DNA of 64,000 bases, taken from the sequence record PZ445488.1, one strand, 5' to 3'. Position numbers and translations under genes: made by a program. The notes under the pieces are model-generated. The model was not told the DNA's origin and did not search any database. It was given only the letters and a program-made list of their open reading frames with translations. The DNA comes from a phage. This document shows positions 6,301 to 43,011 of the stretch, one piece after another (the first letter of the stretch is position 1; every line of letters starts with the position of its first letter).

Positions 6301-6524
6301 TCTAGTTCCTTTGCTGCTTCAAGAGCAGCATCAAGCGAATCAAATTGGTCAACGAAATCAATATTCAACGCATCGTCAACCGTAGCATATAGCCACCATT
6401 GTTTAAATTCATATTCTAGAATAAATCCAGGACCTTCGATCTGAGGAAGACCTAGACTATTTGTACCAACTTCGTAACCAGCTAGACGCAGATCATTAAT
6501 CAAAGTTTCTGTTAGTACGCTCAT
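6297..6524 (-). CDS. hypothetical protein
   Basis: 75 aa acidic ORF, ATG start, 4-nt overlaps with neighbours. Confidence 0.45.
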   Translation of the reverse strand: MSVLTETLINDLRLAGYEVGTNSLGLPQIEGPGFILEYEFKQWWLYATVDDALNIDFVDQFDSLDAALEAAKELE

Positions 6525-6853
6525 TTTACCGCCTTAACAATTTTCAAGTCAGCGAATTTTTTCTTACGTTGATTTTTCATACGACGGATAGTTTTTTCAG
6601 AGATTTCATGTTTCTGATAAGCTTTAGATTCAACACCAAATGCAGCAACGTCAAATTCAGAAAGAATATATTGTACTAGAATTTCGCGAATAGAATTACG
6701 TCCAATTTTCTGGTCGTGTTTTTGCATGATTTCATAAAGACGGAATTCCCACGCGTCAAGAACTTGAGGAGTAACAATACCACCTTTTTCTAGAAGACTA
6801 ACAACTTTATCGAAAGCGAAAGAGTTCACTACGTTTTTGATTTTAGTAGACAT
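6521..6853 (-). CDS. hypothetical protein
   Basis: Start moved to ATG 6853 (MSTKIKN...) preceded by GAGGAAA SD. Confidence 0.45.
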   Translation of the reverse strand: MSTKIKNVVNSFAFDKVVSLLEKGGIVTPQVLDAWEFRLYEIMQKHDQKIGRNSIREILVQYILSEFDVAAFGVESKAYQKHEISEKTIRRMKNQRKKKFADLKIVKAVK

Positions 6854-6871
6854 ATTATTTTCCTCTGTTAT

Positions 6872-6916
6872 TTTATTATCCAACGAGAGCATTATACTCT
6901 GCTCTCAAGAGTTTGT
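6872..6916 (-). repeat. 45-nt intergenic cassette, copy A (identical copy at 36283..36327)
   Basis: TTTATTATCCAACGAGAGCATTATACTCTGCTCTCAAGAGTTTGT on plus strand; contains GAGAGC/GCTCTC inverted repeat around GTATAAT (minus sense). Confidence 0.7.
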
Positions 6917-6919
6917 GCG

Positions 6920-7159
6920 TTATTTCGTGATAAGATAATGTAAATAGTTTGCTTGACGAACACTGATATCAACACCCATATCAAAGATACCTTTATAGAA
7001 CGGGTATTTGTTTTCAGTAGAATCTAGACTAAAAGCCTTTCCGCCACAACTAACGGTAATAGCATCAGTTAAAGTGTCATATGCAAACTTAATAGTTGAG
7101 CCGTTCACTACGACTTCAAGACGTTTTTTCGATGTAATAATGTCTAATTCTTGTTCCAT
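6920..7159 (-). CDS. hypothetical protein
   Basis: 79 aa ORF, ATG start. Confidence 0.45.
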   Translation of the reverse strand: MEQELDIITSKKRLEVVVNGSTIKFAYDTLTDAITVSCGGKAFSLDSTENKYPFYKGIFDMGVDISVRQANYLHYLITK

Positions 7160-13156: not shown

Positions 13157-13416
13157 TTAAAATATTCTCGTAGTTGGTCAAATCCACCAATATGACTTCC
13201 ATCAGGAGCAAATACTTGAGGCATAGTCAATCCAACTTGTGATTCACGTCCAAGCTTAACCAGAAGCTCAGCAATTTTCTCATCATCAAAAACACCTTTT
13301 TCTGGCATAACATTAATGAATTCGAATGGCTGTTTCTTAACAGTCAGCAATCGTTTCGCATTATCACAATAAATGCATTTATGAATAGTAGAGTCATACC
13401 CGTACACTTTAAACAT
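13153..13416 (-). CDS. nrdC: thioredoxin/glutaredoxin NrdC
   Basis: 87 aa from ATG 13416: MFKVYGYDSTIHKCIYCDNAKRLL...; near-identical to recalled T4 NrdC; AAAGGA SD. Confidence 0.9.
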   Translation of the reverse strand: MFKVYGYDSTIHKCIYCDNAKRLLTVKKQPFEFINVMPEKGVFDDEKIAELLVKLGRESQVGLTMPQVFAPDGSHIGGFDQLREYFK

Positions 13417-13822: not shown

Positions 13823-14127
13823 TATAATATTCTCTCAAATTTGTGGAAGCATTTACGGCATTTCAATTTCAAGTTATCAGTGGTCCAGTTAACCAGTTGG
13901 ACTTGGATAGTTCCACATTCCGGGCATGGATGTTTTGCTGCTGATTTGGCAGCATTTTCACGTCGTTCAACCATTTTCATTATTTCGTTCCATGCCGGAG
14001 GAACGAACTCTTCTTCACCGTGGATTTTATCTCGCTGAACAAATTCAATCTTTGAACTATCGTCAATAAACTTAACCAAGCAGTGGTTAGTGTTCATATC
14101 AATATCCTCTAAAAGACGTAGTTTCAT
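13822..14127 (-). CDS. hypothetical zinc-ribbon protein
   Basis: 101 aa; CPECG...CRKC four-cysteine cluster at C-terminus. Confidence 0.5.
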   Translation of the reverse strand: MKLRLLEDIDMNTNHCLVKFIDDSSKIEFVQRDKIHGEEEFVPPAWNEIMKMVERRENAAKSAAKHPCPECGTIQVQLVNWTTDNLKLKCRKCFHKFERIL

Positions 14128-15077
14128 TATAACACCTCAATGGCATTTCGTAAACCATCCGCTTTTGCATTCAGAGCTTTTAATGATTTAGTTTGTTCTG
14201 CAATCTGGGCTTCGACTTCTTTCAGACGTGATTTGAGGTATTCACGTTCTTCGCTCAGGTTATCAACCTTTTCTGCTTTAGGTTCTTTAATAGGCTTAGA
14301 CTTAAACACATTAGGATTCTTCAGCTTAATTCGGGTGCGAGAACTATATAACATTGAACCGTTATCTTCGGATTCGTCGAACGTTTCAACAACATCCATA
14401 GTCTCTAACAATGTAATAAGTTTATAAGACAATGAACGAACGGTTTTGTTATGCTTATTAATTTCTTCAGCTTTCATGGTACCGAGATTACGTGAGTAGT
14501 AATAAGGAACCTGGATATCAATTGATAATGATGCGTTACCATTACCGGTTGGTTTGAATACTGCAGTAACCCAATCTTTAACATGAACTTTATTTGTACG
14601 GCCATCACCGCCAGTGAATAATTTACGAGAATGTTTAAAAAGCATATTCACTTGGTTATTGAATTCACAAGCAAATTTATCAGCAAATTTAGTTTCAGGA
14701 ATGGTAGATAACCAATCAGCCAAATGAGTCTTTTTAACATCATTAACAATAGTGAATTCAACCAAATCGGTTTTAGATGTCACAGATTTAATAAAGCTCG
14801 GCTTCATAAAGTTTTTAATGTTATCGCGAGCTACAGTAGAAGATAATAAACGAGAACGTTTGAACCATTGAAGCAGTGTCCCTAATGAATGAGAATACGC
14901 ATTCTGAGTATCTTTACAGATATGATTTTCTTGACCTGTGTATGTACCAAAATCGCGAAGAATACCACTTACTACATCTCGGTGTGGAACATCAAATCCT
15001 AGTGCACCAACAGCGCGCTTGGCATGAACGTTAGCGATAAGACCGGCAAAGTATTCAATGTAATGTGAACGTGTCAT
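14127..15077 (-). CDS. hypothetical protein with C-terminal coiled coil
   Basis: 316 aa; ATG start; heptad-like C-terminal ~50 aa; preceded by early-promoter repeat. Confidence 0.55.
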   Translation of the reverse strand: MTRSHYIEYFAGLIANVHAKRAVGALGFDVPHRDVVSGILRDFGTYTGQENHICKDTQNAYSHSLGTLLQWFKRSRLLSSTVARDNIKNFMKPSFIKSVTSKTDLVEFTIVNDVKKTHLADWLSTIPETKFADKFACEFNNQVNMLFKHSRKLFTGGDGRTNKVHVKDWVTAVFKPTGNGNASLSIDIQVPYYYSRNLGTMKAEEINKHNKTVRSLSYKLITLLETMDVVETFDESEDNGSMLYSSRTRIKLKNPNVFKSKPIKEPKAEKVDNLSEEREYLKSRLKEVEAQIAEQTKSLKALNAKADGLRNAIEVL

Positions 15078-21797: not shown

Positions 21798-21923
21798 TTT
21801 ACCATACTCGTTTCAATAAGATTCACTATGCCGTTTACCATGTTATAAGTAAACATCGGATAATTGTATTGTACTACAACATAAGCGATAAGCAAAAGTT
21901 TCATTTTGTTCTCCGTTCATTTT

Positions 21924-21962
21924 GGTAGGACTACTATAACATAATCCTACCAAGATGTAAAC
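21924..21962 (-). promoter_or_regulatory. PeSL-like early promoter with stem-loop
   Basis: GTAGGACTACTATAACATAATCCTAC...GTAAAC on plus (GTTTAC -35 on minus). Confidence 0.45.
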
Positions 21963-22195
21963 TACCGATTGTGTTTTAAATGTTGATAAAGTTCTTCAAC
22001 TTGTTTTGGGTCCAAAACAATTAGATCATTTTCTTGACGAAGATAAATCCATCCCTTATCCCCAGGGCCATTTTTACAAAACATCACCACCATATCATCA
22101 TCTTCAGCGCTTTCAGGTAAAAGTTCAAGTACACCGTCTTCAGATTTTCCAGTATAATCGTAAAGCATAATGTCCTCACATAATCTCGTTAACAT
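21962..22195 (-). CDS. hypothetical protein
   Basis: 77 aa acidic ORF, ATG start. Confidence 0.4.
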   Translation of the reverse strand: MLTRLCEDIMLYDYTGKSEDGVLELLPESAEDDDMVVMFCKNGPGDKGWIYLRQENDLIVLDPKQVEELYQHLKHNR

Positions 22196-22355
22196 ACATT
22201 TGCAATTCGGTGTGGGCGTCGGCCATCTTTTTCATAGCTCTGTTAATGTCGATGTCTCCATCTTCGCAACCATGAGCATTTTCCCAATCGGATACAGAAT
22301 TAGCATACTCTTCAATCAAAAACATCAACTTAGAAATCTTTTCTTTACGTGTCAT
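22176..22355 (-). CDS. hypothetical protein
   Basis: Start moved to ATG 22355 (MTRKEKISKL...) downstream of PeSL-like promoter. Confidence 0.4.
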   Translation of the reverse strand: MTRKEKISKLMFLIEEYANSVSDWENAHGCEDGDIDINRAMKKMADAHTELQMYVNEIM

Positions 22356-22359
22356 AACG

Positions 22360-22411
22360 TTCTCCTCTAGTAAGTAAGGACTACTATAACACAACCTGAG
22401 GAGAAGTAAAC
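22360..22411 (-). promoter_or_regulatory. PeSL-like early promoter with stem-loop
   Basis: TCTCCTC...GAGGAGA inverted repeat around TATAAC, GTTTAC on minus. Confidence 0.45.
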
Positions 22412-22456
22412 TGATAGATGCCAAAAAGCCCCAACCATAAGGAAGGGGCTAGTAAA

Positions 22457-25525: not shown

Positions 25526-25984
25526 CTAGATTTTAATCACTGCTTTAGAAGCTTTTCCTGGTAGTCGTTTACTGTTAATAATAGCCATTCTGCATTGAAG
25601 AGTCTTCATTTTGAATGCTGGATTTTCGCGACAGACTGTAAGTCCTAACCAAAGATTTCCATCAGTTATTTCTAAACGGCCTGGGCGATATTCGACACCT
25701 TCGACAAAATCTTCATCAACATCTGGACGTGCCGGCATTGATAAAAATTCTGCAACTTCTTTAACATGATTTTTTACTTTATGAAATAATTCAAAAACGT
25801 AATTCTCATCTATTTCTCTCTGGATGGCACGATCTAAGAGATGTTGAGAATACTTGATATGAAAGCCTGGTAGTCCAAGAGACTTTGCAGCATCTTTTAT
25901 ACCGGCATTTATTTTGCGGAACTCCGTTTCAAAGATTCGACGGAGTTTATTACGGCGGATAAAAACTTCCGAATTGATAGACAT
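25526..25984 (-). CDS. regB: site-specific endoribonuclease RegB
   Basis: 152 aa; MSINSEVFIRRNKLRRIFETEFRKIN...; highly similar to recalled T4 RegB. Confidence 0.9.
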   Translation of the reverse strand: MSINSEVFIRRNKLRRIFETEFRKINAGIKDAAKSLGLPGFHIKYSQHLLDRAIQREIDENYVFELFHKVKNHVKEVAEFLSMPARPDVDEDFVEGVEYRPGRLEITDGNLWLGLTVCRENPAFKMKTLQCRMAIINSKRLPGKASKAVIKI

Positions 25985-25991
25985 TTTGATT

Positions 25992-26041
25992 TCTCCTCTA
26001 GTTGACAGGTCTATAGTAACACAACTAGAGGAGAAGTAAAC
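25992..26041 (-). promoter_or_regulatory. PeSL-like early promoter with stem-loop upstream of regB
   Basis: 13-nt inverted repeat TCTCCTCTAGTTG/CAACTAGAGGAGA flanking TATAGT; GTTTAC on minus. Confidence 0.5.
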
Positions 26042-28462: not shown

Positions 28463-28876
28463 TTAGTAAATTGATTTACCATAGTATTTGTACCAAGTCA
28501 GTCGTTGAGCAATTTTTTCATCTAAGCGTGCTTGACTTATCGCAATGGACGCTTCGGAAGGGACATAATTATTACGAAATTCGGCAGGGATGTCGGAAAT
28601 ATCCTGGACTGTCGTGTCCTTGATTTTGAAACCACGTTTCAAGCATTCAGCGATTAGCTCGATTTGTCGTAAACGTAAAAATTCAAGTTTGTCGTAAAAG
28701 AATGTTACGTGACCTGTGCCTAAGATAAATGTTGGAGAGATTTTAAAATCCTTTACACGTTTACCGTTTTGAACATGTTTACGGACTGCACCAAATACGC
28801 GTGGTAATTCACGATACTCAGCCATAAGATGTTGGTCGGTCAGTTCAGAAACAAGTGTTAAATTGATACGGGTCAT
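28463..28876 (-). CDS. denV: endonuclease V (pyrimidine dimer DNA glycosylase) DenV
   Basis: 137 aa from ATG 28876: [35 protein letters not shown]...; near-identical to recalled T4 endonuclease V. Confidence 0.92.
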
Positions 28877-28894
28877 AATTTCCTCCAAGTAGTT

Positions 28895-28933
28895 GATGAA
28901 TGTATAGTATCAAAGTCCTTGGAGGAAGTAAAC
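28895..28933 (-). promoter_or_regulatory. PeSL-like early promoter with stem-loop upstream of denV
   Basis: 9-nt inverted repeat TCCTCCAAG/CTTGGAGGA flanking TATAGTAT; GTTTAC on minus. Confidence 0.5.
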
Positions 28934-31901: not shown

Positions 31902-31922
31902 AATATTCTCCTCATGTTTTAA

Positions 31923-31958
31923 TAGGACTACTATAACATAGTCCTATCAGTTTGTACA
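31923..31958 (-). promoter_or_regulatory. PeSL-like early promoter with stem-loop
   Basis: TAGGACTACTATAACATAGTCCTA inverted repeat around -10-like element. Confidence 0.45.
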
Positions 31959-31959
31959 C

Positions 31960-32160
31960 TTATTTTGACATTTCTTCGATGTCACGACGATACCCATCAC
32001 GAACTTCACGAAGAGCTTCAAGGCCACACATAGGCTCGATACCAGTAATGTGAACTTGATTAATCTGATACTCTACATCTTCTAACTGAGCGAAAACATA
32101 ACGACGTTCTGCTGCACAACCAGGTTTAGCTTTACCGAAACGTTTATTCAAAGTAGTCAT
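31960..32160 (-). CDS. hypothetical protein
   Basis: Track start is GTG; in-frame ATG at 32160 with GGAG SD. Confidence 0.4.
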   Translation of the reverse strand: MTTLNKRFGKAKPGCAAERRYVFAQLEDVEYQINQVHITGIEPMCGLEALREVRDGYRRDIEEMSK

Positions 32161-33477: not shown

Positions 33478-33484
33478 TTGTTTT

Positions 33485-33523
33485 GATAGGACTACTATAA
33501 CATAGCCCTATCTTGTTGTAAAC
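33485..33523 (-). promoter_or_regulatory. PeSL-like early promoter with stem-loop
   Basis: GATAGGACTACTATAACATAGCCCTATC...GTAAAC on plus. Confidence 0.5.
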
Positions 33524-33527
33524 TGTT

Positions 33528-33725
33528 TTAGCAAGAATAACTAGATGATACCCAGCCTTGAACAGTGATACTATTGTGGGATAATGAGATCGCGTCCTGG
33601 AGATTCAGACCTGCGTTATCTTCAATCCACAATGTAACTTCTTCACGCTCTTCGGTTGCAATCTGGAACAGGTTTTCCAGGGCAGCTACTGCCGTACGTA
33701 CAGCACAATCTAATTCACGAGACAT
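33528..33725 (-). CDS. small protein, C-terminal GWVSSSxxC family, paralog 1
   Basis: 65 aa ending ...VQGWVSSSYSC. Confidence 0.5.
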   Translation of the reverse strand: MSRELDCAVRTAVAALENLFQIATEEREEVTLWIEDNAGLNLQDAISLSHNSITVQGWVSSSYSC

Positions 33726-35666: not shown

Positions 35667-36260
35667 TTATTTCAAAGAGTTAATATATTCTTGTACATCA
35701 GCAGAAGTGGTTTCGACACCGGTTGGAGTGCCATTGAACGTTTCAACACGAGTCAGAGTGTCTTCGATATCAACCTTGGTCAGTGCAGCGATTTCAATTA
35801 CATCATCAGCCGTAGAGATACCAAGGGCATTAGCTGCTCGAGTTTCACGAATGTATTCGAGTTTGATTGCCAGGTTCTGACGAGCATCGTCAAGTTCAAC
35901 CACCTTACGAGCAATTTCAATTCGCATAGCGGCATACCCGTCAGCTTTTGTATTAAGTTGTTCGGCAGTTCGACGATACAGAAGACCAAGCTTAGCATGC
36001 ATAGTAACATCTTGTCCTTCAGCCAGGAGCTTACGAATTTCACGTTCCTTAGAAGCGGCTTGCTTGTTCTTTTCATTAACAAGTTCGCGAATACGTTTTT
36101 CTTCGTTAATAGATTTAACAGAAGCCGTTTTTAGTTCTTTGATTTGGGTAATCAACTTATCTGCAGCTGCGTTATACTGTTCTTCGACAGTCAGATTTTT
36201 AGCCATAACAGTACCCAGTTTAGTGCGGATGAATTCAACAAGTTTCTTCAGTGTGTTCAT
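35667..36260 (-). CDS. hypothetical coiled-coil protein
   Basis: Start at ATG 36260 ([10 protein letters not shown]...); track start is TTG. Confidence 0.5.
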
Positions 36261-36282
36261 ATTATTACCTTTCAATTGGTGG

Positions 36283-36327
36283 TTTATTATCCAACGAGAG
36301 CATTATACTCTGCTCTCAAGAGTTTGT
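36283..36327 (-). repeat. 45-nt intergenic cassette, copy B (identical to 6872..6916)
   Basis: Exact 45-nt identity with copy A, same position relative to downstream start codon. Confidence 0.7.
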
Positions 36328-36330
36328 AAA

Positions 36331-36558
36331 TTATTTTTTAATCAAATTAACATAAAACTTGGCGTCTTCCGGGTGCATTCCTTCGCAGTATTCTTCAACC
36401 ATGAACTTCTTAACAGCTTCATAAGGACCACTCAGATTAAGCTCAGTTGTCCAGAACTTGGAATCTTGTACTGAATCGATACGAACTTCAGGGTGACGGT
36501 TGCGAATAACTTCTTCTGTGTATTCATAATCAACGACATCAATACTAACTTTAGCCAT
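36331..36558 (-). CDS. hypothetical protein
   Basis: 75 aa ORF, ATG start. Confidence 0.45.
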   Translation of the reverse strand: MAKVSIDVVDYEYTEEVIRNRHPEVRIDSVQDSKFWTTELNLSGPYEAVKKFMVEEYCEGMHPEDAKFYVNLIKK

Positions 36559-37891: not shown

Positions 37892-37899
37892 TATTTATA
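37892..37899 (-). promoter_or_regulatory. T4-type late promoter TATAAATA
   Basis: Exact TATAAATA on minus strand ~36 nt upstream of ATG 37856. Confidence 0.5.
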
Positions 37900-37900
37900 C

Positions 37901-37928
37901 AAAAAAGCCCCAACCTTTCGGAAGGGGC
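37901..37928 (-). terminator. rho-independent terminator (GC hairpin + U6) at distal end of tRNA region
   Basis: GCCCC..CCTT-TCGG-AAGG..GGGGC hairpin followed by TTTTTT on minus strand. Confidence 0.55.
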
Positions 37929-37971
37929 TATATACCTTGTCGGGGTTTCCACCTACTAGGTAAGTGTTTGT

Positions 37972-38594: not shown

Positions 38595-38671
<77 letters not shown>

Positions 38672-38674
38672 AAT

Positions 38675-38749
38675 TGGTGACCCTGGCTGGTTTCGATCCA
38701 GCTACCTATCAGTTATGAGCTGACAGCTCTCCCATTGAGCTACAGGGCC
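38675..38749 (-). tRNA. tRNA with CAU anticodon (Ile2-type as in T4, or Met), CCA encoded
   Basis: Minus strand GGCCCTG-TA-GCTCAATGGGAGAGC-T-GTCAG-CTCATAA-CTGAT-..-GCTGG-ATCGAAA-CCAGC-CAGGGTC-A-CCA; manual cloverleaf. Confidence 0.75.
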
Positions 38750-40206: not shown

Positions 40207-40213
40207 TTGATTT

Positions 40214-40249
40214 GATAGGACTACTATAACATAGTCCTATCATGTAAAC
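40214..40249 (-). promoter_or_regulatory. PeSL-like early promoter with stem-loop
   Basis: GATAGGACTACTATAACATAGTCCTATC + GTAAAC (plus); same core as 40542..40580. Confidence 0.5.
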
Positions 40250-40251
40250 TA

Positions 40252-40515
40252 TTAAATACCAGCTTCGCGTTTAACATAATCGACGTAAGCTTGGATAGCT
40301 TTCTTGCTGGTAATTTTTACCTGGCCTCGTCCGTTGCCTTCTTTAGAGTTTTTCTTAACAACTACATTACCATCTTTAACACCCCATACATGGACATAAG
40401 TACCGATGTTTCGGTCGTAGAACATTGCATGGTCGTTGTTGTAAGAGAATGATTCGTAGTTCTCTGACAGAGTAGAAGATTGAGATTCAGCGATAAATTC
40501 TTTATAGGTTTTCAT
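40252..40515 (-). CDS. internal-protein-like protein with capsid-targeting N-terminus (ipI position)
   Basis: 87 aa; N-terminus MKTYKEFIAES matches T4 IP CTS. Confidence 0.6.
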   Translation of the reverse strand: MKTYKEFIAESQSSTLSENYESFSYNNDHAMFYDRNIGTYVHVWGVKDGNVVVKKNSKEGNGRGQVKITSKKAIQAYVDYVKREAGI

Positions 40516-40541
40516 TTGTTTTTCCGTTTGGTTGTTGATTT

Positions 40542-40580
40542 GATAGGACTACTATAACATAGTCCTATCAGCATGTAAAC
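40542..40580 (-). promoter_or_regulatory. PeSL-like early promoter with stem-loop
   Basis: GATAGGACTACTATAACATAGTCCTATC...GTAAAC; minus sense GTTTAC-N17-TATAGT. Confidence 0.5.
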
Positions 40581-40583
40581 TAC

Positions 40584-40871
40584 TTACAGAAGAGTTTTTG
40601 CAATAATTTTAAGCTGAGCTACAGAAATATGCTTAGCTTTAAACAGTGCGGTCTCTTCGGCCGGAGAGATAACAACAGTAGCGCCATCTTTCTTAGCAGA
40701 CCATCCGTCCCCTAAGTAAACAGTACCTTTTACTTCTTCACCATCAACCAGACTAATCATCGGTTTACCCTCACGTCCTTTATTTGCTTTAATAACTTCG
40801 GAAGTAAGGGTTGCTTCGGTCAGAGTAGAAACGTTAGCAACAGGTGATATAAATTCTTTATAGGTTTTCAT
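40584..40871 (-). CDS. internal-protein-like protein with capsid-targeting N-terminus
   Basis: 95 aa; N-terminus MKTYKEFISPV. Confidence 0.55.
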   Translation of the reverse strand: MKTYKEFISPVANVSTLTEATLTSEVIKANKGREGKPMISLVDGEEVKGTVYLGDGWSAKKDGATVVISPAEETALFKAKHISVAQLKIIAKTLL

Positions 40872-42426: not shown

Positions 42427-43011
42427 TTAACGCAAAGAAGGGTGTCTAGAAATGGATTTAGATTCGACCGCTTGACGTGGTTGTTGAGATACAATGACTT
42501 CGCCGTCTTTTTCTATCGTCATATACGCGAAGTGAATAGTTGCTACGCACGTAACGGCAGGGTCAGAATCTTCAGTGTAACTAAATTCAATTTCGCTCAG
42601 ATCGGAAATCCATGGTTTATAGAAATTCGCAGTCAAAACTACTTCGGTCTTATTGTTGTTTAAAATGTGCAAAGTAACAAACTCAGGACCATCGGCATGT
42701 GCCGTATTATGTCCGGTTATATAGTTATTAGTGCTGAGCATCCATTTATACATGTTCATCCAGGACGTCATGTCTTCATCAACTATAAATCGTACAATAA
42801 AAGGGTCATATTCAAATGTAGTGCCTGCACGCATTGCACGCCCTAGCCCCATTGTGCCTGTCACAGTTTCAACAACAGGAATTCTCACACCTGGCAGTGG
42901 AGCCGTTTGGGCATTGAGCACAAAACCTGAAGTTCGTGTACTATCCGGGATATCCACAACAAAGTTTGTTATATTTGTTTGGTTAAAAATCTGTCTCGCT
43001 GGACGAGTCAT
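42427..43011 (-). CDS. 3: tail completion/sheath stabiliser protein gp3
   Basis: Start at ATG 43011 (track start is GTG); position between 1 and 2 as in T4. Confidence 0.7.
   Translation of the reverse strand: MTRPARQIFNQTNITNFVVDIPDSTRTSGFVLNAQTAPLPGVRIPVVETVTGTMGLGRAMRAGTTFEYDPFIVRFIVDEDMTSWMNMYKWMLSTNNYITGHNTAHADGPEFVTLHILNNNKTEVVLTANFYKPWISDLSEIEFSYTEDSDPAVTCVATIHFAYMTIEKDGEVIVSQQPRQAVESKSISRHPSLR

Follow-up and report, generated by a model that had tools for sequence, protein, structure and literature searches.

A repeated 45-nt cassette of early promoter, hairpin and RegB-type site in an RB69-like phage

Introduction

Within the window analysed here, a 64,000-nucleotide stretch of phage DNA (sequence record PZ445488.1), an identical 45-nt sequence stands twice between genes of the minus strand. 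This repeat is a cassette of an early promoter, a hairpin that brackets the -10 element and a site of the kind cut by the phage endoribonuclease RegB, and it is an ordinary member of a class known from T4-type phages. It is very probably an early-promoter cassette of the class termed PeSL (an early promoter combined with a stem-loop) and homologous to PmotB, the early promoter of T4 gene motB. For the evidence as a whole, the best explanation is a composite regulatory cassette of the PeSL type, related as paralogue or orthologue to the early promoter and leader of T4 motB, an account that we regard as likely.

Part of this is already known. A 2006 study had predicted promoters at the RB69 orthologues of the cassette, its T4 homologue has been well studied both as a promoter and as a substrate of RegB, and cassettes of this class have been published. 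By contrast, the RegB site as a constant part of the cassette, the strong covariation of the stem across genera and its bias towards the sense strand were not found in the searchable literature. RegB is unmentioned in both PeSL papers (0 occurrences in Comeau 2014, PMC4122927), no analysis of covariation or strand bias turned up in the searched passages of these papers (PMC2839356, PMC4122927), and dyads in early promoters are not mentioned in the review of T4 transcription (PMC2988021). The result joins the shuffling of PeSL cassettes with the inactivation of early mRNA by RegB, two topics that are unconnected in searchable papers. For annotation, it means that repeats of this short kind are best named early-promoter/PeSL cassettes that include a RegB site and should not pass for mysterious repeats or mobile elements.

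Repeat and genomic setting

The 45-mer, which reads TTTATTATCCAACGAGAGCATTATACTCTGCTCTCAAGAGTTTGT on the plus strand and ACAAACTCTTGAGAGCAGAGTATAATGCTCTCGTTGGATAATAAA in the gene sense (minus strand), has exactly two copies in the window, at 6872-6916 (copy 1) and 36283-36327 (copy 2), with 0 mismatches; chance matches occurred in 0/100 dinucleotide-preserving shuffles. Beyond this core, the similarity spans 78 nt at 82% identity (6859-6936 versus 36270-36347). Both copies are intergenic, the genes there being coded on the minus strand, and both lie 40-45 nt 5' of an ATG provided with a Shine-Dalgarno (SD) sequence. In copy 1, the order is the stop codon TAA (6922-6920) of a 79-aa open reading frame (ORF) that resembles RB69ORF075c, the cassette and an ATG at 6853, 18 nt past the 45-mer; in copy 2, it is the TAA of frd.3 (36333-36331), the cassette and an ATG at 36260, 22 nt past the 45-mer. 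The sequence upstream of the cassettes is A/T-rich (aaaaaataa in copy 2).

The window represents an RB69-like T4-type coliphage (CEV1; genus Mosigvirus, Tevenvirinae), with 100% identity to fragments of Escherichia phage CEV1 and 95-98% identity to many RB69-like phages. In RB69 naming, copy 1 is located between RB69ORF075c and gene 55.2, and copy 2 between frd.3 and e.6. The genes that flank the two copies are unrelated, gene 55.2 (DUF7570) following the first and an e.6-like gene the second. An initial annotation, made from the letters of the stretch, had described an identical cassette that stands twice upstream of unrelated genes, directly after a stop codon and about 20 nt before the next minus-strand start, and that contains a GAGAGC/GCTCTC hairpin with GTATAAT in its loop. 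All of these observations hold, and the comparison with other genomes that it proposed gave matches to the 45-mer in 717 phage records, which together hold roughly 1,200 members of the family.

Early promoter

The initial annotation had judged that the -35 spacing fits neither a sigma70 nor a T4 early promoter. This was mistaken, as the -35 hexamer lies across the 5' edge of the repeat, partly inside and partly outside it: in copy 2 the promoter is TTTACA-17-TATAAT, with 11/12 matches to the consensus, or ATTTAC-18-TATAAT in T4-early numbering. The TTGAGA within the repeat was rejected as a -35 element, since it would leave a 6-nt spacer. Copy 1 has a perfect -10 and the correct spacing, but its -35, CGCACA, matches TTGACA at only 3/6 positions, and only the ACA lies inside the 45-mer.

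Several annotations agree on a promoter. The copy-2 orthologue in ATK47 was marked by its annotators as a host-type promoter, and the Lutter annotation calls the ~84% T4-type match 'promoter'. The three RB69 copies (42497, 72051 and 165004) coincide with Pe:42515, Pe:72069 and Pe:165022, which are listed as predicted RB69 early promoters (Nolan et al. 2006), and the T4 motB promoter has been seen by primer extension at 3 min (Durand 2006, Fig. 5 legend, PMC1702504). The window holds ~29 minus-strand promoters of similar build. The cassette can thus be read as a predicted sigma70-dependent early promoter, with a -35 of the form (G/A)TTTAC(A) next to the upstream stop codon, a 17-18 nt spacer and a TATAAT -10; it would be strong in copy 2 and is probably weak in copy 1.

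A middle promoter, another suggestion of the initial annotation, would depend on MotA and need its box, (a/t)(a/t)(a/t)TGCTTtA, which is centred at -30 and precedes the -10 by 11-13 nt. From -35 to -25 the sequence reads TTTACAAACTC, in which TGCTT is absent, and this candidate was rejected.

Conservation of the hairpin

The hairpin, GAGAGCA-gagtataa-TGCTCTC, has a 7-bp stem and an 8-nt loop that contains the -10. Of its two arms, the 5' one falls within the promoter spacer (-22..-16) and the 3' one within the discriminator (-7..-1). T4 and CEV1 are identical from the -35 through the loop, and their stems, GGGACC/GGTCCC versus GAGAGC/GCTCTC, differ by two compensated pairs. We aligned 16 distinct sequences from seven phage groups (Mosig-, Tequatro-, Dhaka-, Gapriver-, Kanagawa- and Marfavirus together with metagenomic contigs); pattern scans of IMG/VR gave only 9-10 loci, which were mostly near-identical. 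Pairing is perfect (6/6) for GAGAGC/GCTCTC in both CEV1 copies, ATK47, 3/4 copies of p000v and 2/3 copies of RB69, for GAGAGA/TCTCTC in the RB69 55.2 copy, for AGGAGC/GCTCCT in the p000v copy at 13293, for GGGACC/GGTCCC in T4 motB, for GGGGTC/GACCCC in the metagenomic locus L014, for GAGGAC/GTCCTC in Marfa, AmPh_EK29 and ZX14, and for GGGAGT/ACTCCC in teqskov. One G·T is present in GGGACC/GGTCCT (L011, L012, L013 and L016), in GGGAGC/GTTCCC (L014 and P896) and in GGGAGC/GCTCCT (JS98), and two are present in GGGATC/GGTCCT (L015).

Over the alignment, 96/96 cells pair and five of the six pairs have changed on both sides. The covariation score of the stem is 0.706, against 0.287 +/- 0.043 for shuffled alignments, and 0/500 shuffles reach it; as a control, sliding the 3' partner by 1-3 columns lowers the pairing to 45-56% of cells. 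The arrangement is also frequent among the promoters of the window, where 13 of the 29 candidate minus-strand early promoters have their -10 inside a perfect inverted repeat of 6 bp or more. When spacers were swapped among these promoters, a mean of 3.05 carried such a repeat and 0/5000 permutations reached 13. This permutation, together with the covariation, rules out that the dyad merely follows from a promoter consensus that is itself palindromic. Because all cells pair, five of the six pairs are compensated and every non-Watson-Crick cell is a G·U on the sense strand, the hairpin is under selection, most likely in RNA that reads through the cassette. An alternative helix, ACUCU/AGAGU, in which the spacer would pair with the loop, was rejected: it shows one compensated change in Marfaviruses but is broken in RB69 and ZX14.

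The same stems bear on whether the dyad could serve as an operator, bound by a sequence-specific dimeric protein such as a factor that shuts off early promoters. Palindromes around the -10 occupy classic operator positions, the mechanism of T4 early-promoter shut-off is not understood (PMC3014915, PMC2988021) and the copies in one genome are identical. However, at least 11 different stem sequences keep complementarity and not identity, and other early promoters of the same genome carry quite different stems. Because it is complementarity that is kept, the comparison argues for structure rather than base-specific recognition by a protein, and the operator was rejected; taken together with a MotA-dependent middle promoter, it is a very improbable reading of the dyad.

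Strand and molecule of the hairpin

The imperfect stem pairs of the family are G·U on the gene-sense strand in 6/6 cells, and the internal mismatches of other promoter hairpins in p000v and RB69 comprise five G·T and no A·C. For 58 p000v promoters, the segment from the spacer to the start folds at -6.29 kcal/mol in the sense and -4.79 kcal/mol in the antisense orientation (paired Wilcoxon p = 3.6e-5), with z-scores of -1.81 and -1.23, respectively. These comparisons point clearly to selection for sense-strand pairing around the -10. In read-through RNA, the cassette hairpin has a predicted free energy of -10.2 kcal/mol and a stem probability of ~1.0. Since the predicted transcription start is immediately 3' of the stem, only transcripts that enter from promoters farther upstream should be able to form the hairpin. 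On balance, we lean towards a hairpin that acts as RNA.

An RNA hairpin between two genes could also be a terminator or attenuator that insulates each small early gene from upstream transcription, as was originally proposed for PeSLs. One RB49 PeSL stem-loop is reported to have cut lacZ expression about as much as rrnB T1 (Arbiol 2010, PMC2839356). The proposal also suits a hairpin that forms only in read-through RNA at a gene boundary and whose bias is to the sense strand. However, the stem is followed by no U tract (GCUCUC-GUUGGAUAAUAAA), it has only 7 bp with an 8-nt loop at -10 kcal/mol, and a terminator scan gave 0 sites at both loci. T4 delayed-early expression, moreover, relies on read-through of such regions (PMC2988021), and genuine terminators in the window look different, having GCCCC...GGGGC and then a T run (as does a terminator annotated in ATK47). 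An intrinsic (rho-independent) terminator was rejected on the scan and the missing U run, and the insulation proposal as a whole seems improbable to us. Elsewhere in the window, a pair of terminator-like elements, 85% similar to each other, is located on the minus strand at 22418-22451 and 37897-37930 (gene sense AGCCCC...GGGGCTTTTT); these probably mark true ends of early transcription units.

RegB/S1 site

In the gene sense, the 3' third of the cassette contains a RegB/S1-type site, GGAUAAUAAA(A), which starts at about +4 (span ~ +4..+14). The RegB/S1 target is the 11-nt consensus GGAGAAUAAAA (Durand et al. 2006, PMC1702504). GGAU is cleaved only with a strict A-rich tail, and of 30 T4 GGAU sequences tested, only the ORF 55.2 and motB.2 sites were cut (PMC1702504). 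The RegB-cleaved T4 sites shown there (Fig. 3A) number 26. We looked for GGA followed by G (rarely U) at position 4 and by a C-free 7-nt A-rich tail, with A at positions 6, 8 and 11. The copy 1 site is the second-best match to the consensus on the coding strand of the window, and it stands upstream of the 55.2 orthologue, where it is 12/12 identical to the RegB-cleaved T4 '55.2' site GGAUAAUAAAAU. The T4 motB leader GGAGUAUAAAA (GGAG then UAUAAAA) is an efficient RegB substrate both in vivo and in vitro (PMC1702504), and this efficiently cut GGAG is the GGAG of the T4 homologue of the cassette. Throughout the family, GGA(G/U) is found 2-3 nt past the stem in 16/16 members. The A-rich tail is predicted to be unpaired, and the GG has a paired probability of 0.6-0.96 in both transcript forms, although these are weak predictions. 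The homology and the match to the consensus make it likely that GGAU is a functional RegB site, with copy 1 the likelier of the two. An RNA-processing site had been among the alternatives of the initial annotation, and it is borne out to the extent that this third of the cassette is homologous to experimentally cleaved T4 sites.

At the 55.2 junction, the copy-1 -35 region (window 6914-6920) is ACGCAC in CEV1 and p000v, but a good GTATAC in RB69 (42498-42503). The hairpin and the GGAU site are retained in CEV1, p000v and RB69 despite these differences. Because the -35 is degenerate in CEV1 and p000v while hairpin and GGAU are kept, the comparison suggests that the RNA elements matter more than the promoter at this junction.

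Copies across phages and recombination

Mosigviruses carry 3-4 copies of the cassette per genome, upstream of 55.2, e.6, ndd and one other gene; in p000v, the four copies are upstream of the gene at 13293, e.6, 55.2 and ndd. T4, T2, T6 and their relatives have a single ~84% match, the early promoter upstream of motB. The RB69 55.2 copy differs from the RB69 e.6 and ndd copies at four core positions, with one stem pair compensated. In CEV1 and p000v, the 55.2 copy equals the e.6 copy over all 45 nt, and the flanks of the 55.2 copy are still orthologous to the RB69 55.2 locus (88.7% over 1.2 kb). Gene conversion between cassettes is the probable origin of this identity; recombination of the T4 type would homogenise and shuffle short cassettes, making the copies identical.

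A metagenomic Mosigvirus (IMGVR_UViG_3300030021_000002, 13960-14330) has an extra 82-aa ORF (14040-14287) between frd.3 and e.6. This ORF, a single example, is absent from the window and is bracketed by two promoter cassettes, with its breakpoint in a shared ACAAAC. As read from these alignments, the cassette-bounded indel and the apparent gene conversion fit the published PeSL model, and both favour the recombination cassette that the initial annotation had offered as a further alternative. Farther upstream and away from the cassette, a 211-bp difference in Shf125875 is an extra RB69ORF145c-like gene.

Such exchanges raise the question of whether the inverted repeat acts as DNA, either as a hairpin or cruciform that helps the promoter to open or as a structure-specific target (a hot spot) for recombination or nucleases. 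The cassette-bounded indel and the apparent conversion between copies are in keeping with this, as are the RB49/phi1 PeSL mini-circles, for which crossovers inside PeSLs, one of them in the loop, were shown. The -10 in the loop is suggestive for promoter melting, and the phage encodes endonuclease VII and gp46/47. Against it, the imperfect pairs are all G·T on the sense strand and would be A·C mismatches in the other cruciform arm, a 7-bp stem with an 8-nt loop extrudes poorly, and the 5' arm (-22..-16) remains double-stranded in the open complex. Recombination needs only sequence identity, not a dyad, and would not by itself select compensatory changes; the T4 55.2 site, moreover, retains a hairpin and GGAU without any promoter. 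An action as DNA appears slightly less probable even than insulation by a terminator.

Proposed working in RNA

A hairpin that acts as RNA would stand directly beside the RegB cut, and in T4 all three relevant RegB sites (motB, motB.2 and 55.2) directly follow or overlap a hairpin. Once RegB has cut, RNase II, RNase R and PNPase act on the upstream fragment, while the downstream fragment, which has a 5'-OH, is phosphorylated by polynucleotide kinase (PNK) and then cleaved by RNase G/E; RegB itself is easily inhibited by secondary structure (PMC3014915).

Two T4 junctions illustrate the arrangement with other stems. At the 55.3/55.2 junction, where the intergenic space is 13 nt and a promoter is absent, the 3' end of gene 55.3 (NC_000866 40000-43500, minus strand, locus 811-836) carries a UUCG-tetraloop hairpin, AAGGGC-UUCG-GCCUUU. 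It ends 2 nt before the RegB-cleaved 12-nt site, and its stem is unrelated to that of the Mosigvirus cassette. At the dexA/motB.2 junction (NC_000866 5500-8500, minus strand, locus 2640-2760), an early promoter, GTTTAC-18-TACTAT, is built into a ~17-bp hairpin, with the -10 in the loop and the 3' arm running into the RegB-cut GAGGAUAAUAAAAUG; the arm ends in the RegB-cleaved GGAUAAUAAAA, which doubles as the motB.2 SD.

On this basis, we propose the following course of events. Early on, host RNA polymerase would start at the cassette and would also read through from upstream, as is established for T4 early regions. RegB, with S1, would then cut the leader between GG and AU, as shown for the T4 homologues. 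The downstream message would gain a 5'-OH end, and its phosphorylation by PNK would open it to decay by RNase G/E, following the published T4 pathway. In read-through RNA, the same cut would place a stable hairpin close to the new 3' end of the upstream cistron, at a distance of 2-5 nt, which should slow RNase II, RNase R and PNPase. For T4 motB, JS98 and teqskov, folding predicts a longer helix, in which the conserved spacer ACUCU also covers GGAG/GGAU; this would hide the motif in read-through RNA only.

Protection of the 3' end of the upstream cistron by the hairpin is a tentative part of this model, and the wider idea that promoter-embedded hairpin and RegB site form one conserved RNA 'punctuation' module of T-even-type phages is more doubtful still. 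If such a module existed, read-through and promoter-initiated transcripts would differ in structure, and RegB would cut them differently, its site being hidden in one and exposed in the other. Cutting would leave a protective hairpin at the 3' end of the upstream cistron and prime the downstream one for decay by PNK and RNase G/E. One 45-nt DNA segment would then be selected both as a promoter (in DNA) and as a processing and stability signal (in RNA), and such a module would account for a stem that covaries in seven or more phage groups. If confirmed, it would provide a simple testable model for separating the fates of overlapping read-through and gene-proximal early transcripts in T4-type phages. 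A ready test bed is T4 motB, whose RegB site has been mutagenised before and whose region is dispensable.

Several points weigh against this account of the cassette. The copy 1 promoter, with its poor -35 (3/6), was not called by the promoter scanner, and both the start site and RegB cleavage in the CEV1 phage are carried over by homology. A search for genome-wide data on transcript ends in T4-type coliphages returned none. The family sequences are related, so the cell counts overstate the number of independent events. G·T is also tolerated in single-stranded DNA hairpins, and the wobble bias identifies a strand, not RNA; likewise, the gap between sense and antisense energies is modest, and both strands beat their shuffles. 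The copy 2 RegB site fails at position 11 (C), the ndd copy has a C at position 7, never seen in cleaved T4 RNAs (Durand et al.), and RB69-type RegB has diverged from T4 RegB (PMC3014915). Because of these two C residues, not every copy need be cut; in phiE142, an extra A in a copy-2-type site restores A at position 11. Folding predicts no clear occlusion of GGAU in the CEV1 copies, for which hiding of the RegB site by an extended helix was rejected as unconvincing, and the role in 3'-end protection is a putative one.

Features and related promoter designs in the window

The elements of the two cassettes, the neighbouring genes and regB, the trans-acting gene whose product is the predicted cutter, are collected in Table 1.

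Table 1. Positions of the cassette elements and associated genes in the window.
Feature	Position	Strand	Basis or remark
Copy 1, -35 position, CGCACA	6914..6919	minus	degenerate
Copy 1, -10 hexamer TATAAT in hairpin loop	6891..6896	minus	
Copy 1, hairpin	6885..6906	minus	folding, covariation
Copy 1, predicted transcription start, G, 7 nt past -10	6884	minus	standard sigma70 geometry
Copy 1, RegB/S1-type site GGAUAAUAAAA	6871..6881	minus	one mismatch (tolerated U4) to GGAGAAUAAAA; A-rich tail complete
Copy 2, -35 hexamer TTTACA, directly after frd.3 stop codon	36325..36330	minus	ATK47 annotation
Copy 2, -10 TATAAT	36302-36307	minus	
Copy 2, hairpin	36296..36317	minus	folding, covariation
Copy 2, predicted transcription start, G	36295	minus	promoter geometry
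Copy 2, RegB-like site GGAUAAUAAAC	36282..36292	minus	GGAU, but C at position 11; weaker match
Gene 55.2 orthologue (DUF7570), downstream of copy 1	6521..6853	minus	PF24454, E = 1.8e-39; RB69 annotation
e.6-like gene (similar to T4 AAD42574), downstream of copy 2	35667..36260	minus	
frd.3, upstream of copy 2	36331..36558	minus	PF05798, E = 1.3e-38
regB, endoribonuclease gene, predicted cutter of cassette GGAU	25526..25984	minus	PF10715 REGB_T4, E = 4e-69

The early promoter of regB itself (25982-26041, minus strand; -35 at 26041-26036, -10 TACTAT at 26018-26013) is set within an inverted repeat of 14 bp, formed by a 5' arm, TTCTCCTCTAGTTG (26035-26022), and its complement CAACTAGAGGAGAA (26004-25991); the latter holds the regB SD, GGAG. 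Read-through RNA would hide both this SD and the autoregulatory RegB site, and RNA from the gene's own promoter would expose them. In two other early promoters, the spacer is complementary to the downstream SD: over 10 bp (TTCCTCCAAG/CTTGGAGGAA) at 28933 (28874-28933, minus strand), and over 8 bp (TTCTCCTC.../...GAGGAGAA) at 22411 (22340-22411, minus strand). The regB (26041), 28933 and 22411 promoters and that of T4 motB.2 share a promoter-inside-hairpin design with the SD in the 3' arm.

A second, near-identical cassette subtype, GTTTAC...TGATAGGACTA-tgttatag-TAGTCCTATCA, forms a 9-11 bp stem around a TATAGT -10. It has at least five copies (40539-40586, 31918-31965, 33482-33529, 21921-21968 and 40211-40258), some with sense-strand G·T wobbles. 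At the gathering threshold, no Rfam family covers the cassettes, and the whole window yields only two tRNAs. These adjacent genes (38598-38749, minus strand; RF00005, 71 and 59 bits) are upstream of the frd.3/e.6 region, a placement as in RB69-like phages, where rnaC is also nearby.

Comparison with known systems

PeSLs, as described, consist of a sigma70-like early promoter with an AT-rich upstream region and a stem-loop that mostly lies between -35 and -10 or over the -10; they occupy hyperplastic regions and mediate ORF shuffling and mini-circle formation (Arbiol 2010, PMC2839356). They were extended to the T-even pair PST/T4, with the consensus TTTACW-N17-TAYWAT, in a later paper (Comeau 2014, PMC4122927). 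The cassette described here resembles them in joining a sigma70-like early promoter, which fits this consensus, to a stem-loop overlapping the -10, and in that promoter, stem-loop and SD/ATG fill an intergenic space which begins at the upstream stop codon. It is likewise repeated among small non-essential early genes, with the breakpoints of an ORF indel inside cassettes. There are nevertheless differences. PeSLs were reported for RB49/phi1, PST/T4 and nt-1/KVP40, whereas the present cassette belongs to RB69-like Mosigviruses. The RB49 PeSL stems pair a G-run with a C-run, whereas the CEV1 stem is GAGAGC/GCTCTC; and the PeSL stem-loop was called a terminator, whereas that of CEV1 has no U tract.

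A second point of comparison is the group of T4 translational switches in which a promoter lies within a hairpin, namely those of gene e, soc, 49 and I-TevI; their promoters are late ones and the SD is sequestered. As in these switches, read-through transcripts of the cassette would form the hairpin and internally started transcripts would not. In the 45-mer, however, the 3' arm stops short of +1 and leaves the SD outside.

At the T4 55.2 junction, the RegB site stands at the same junction as copy 1 and has the same 12 nt, with a hairpin 2 nt before it. The T4 hairpin has an unrelated UUCG-tetraloop stem and no promoter, whereas Mosigviruses add the RB69ORF075c-like ORF and the promoter cassette there. 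T4 motB (Sanson & Uzan; Durand et al. 2006, PMC1702504) has one copy per genome, compared with the 3-4 of Mosigviruses; its stem is two compensated pairs away from that of CEV1, its motif is GGAG where CEV1 has GGAU, and its helix is predicted to extend over GGAG. Even so, T4 motB and the CEV1 cassette are 84% identical over the 45 nt, and both have the -10 in the loop and the RegB site 2-3 nt past the stem, in the common frame (G)TTTACAAACTCTT-stem-AGAGTATAAT-stem-N2-3-GGA(G/U)-A-rich.

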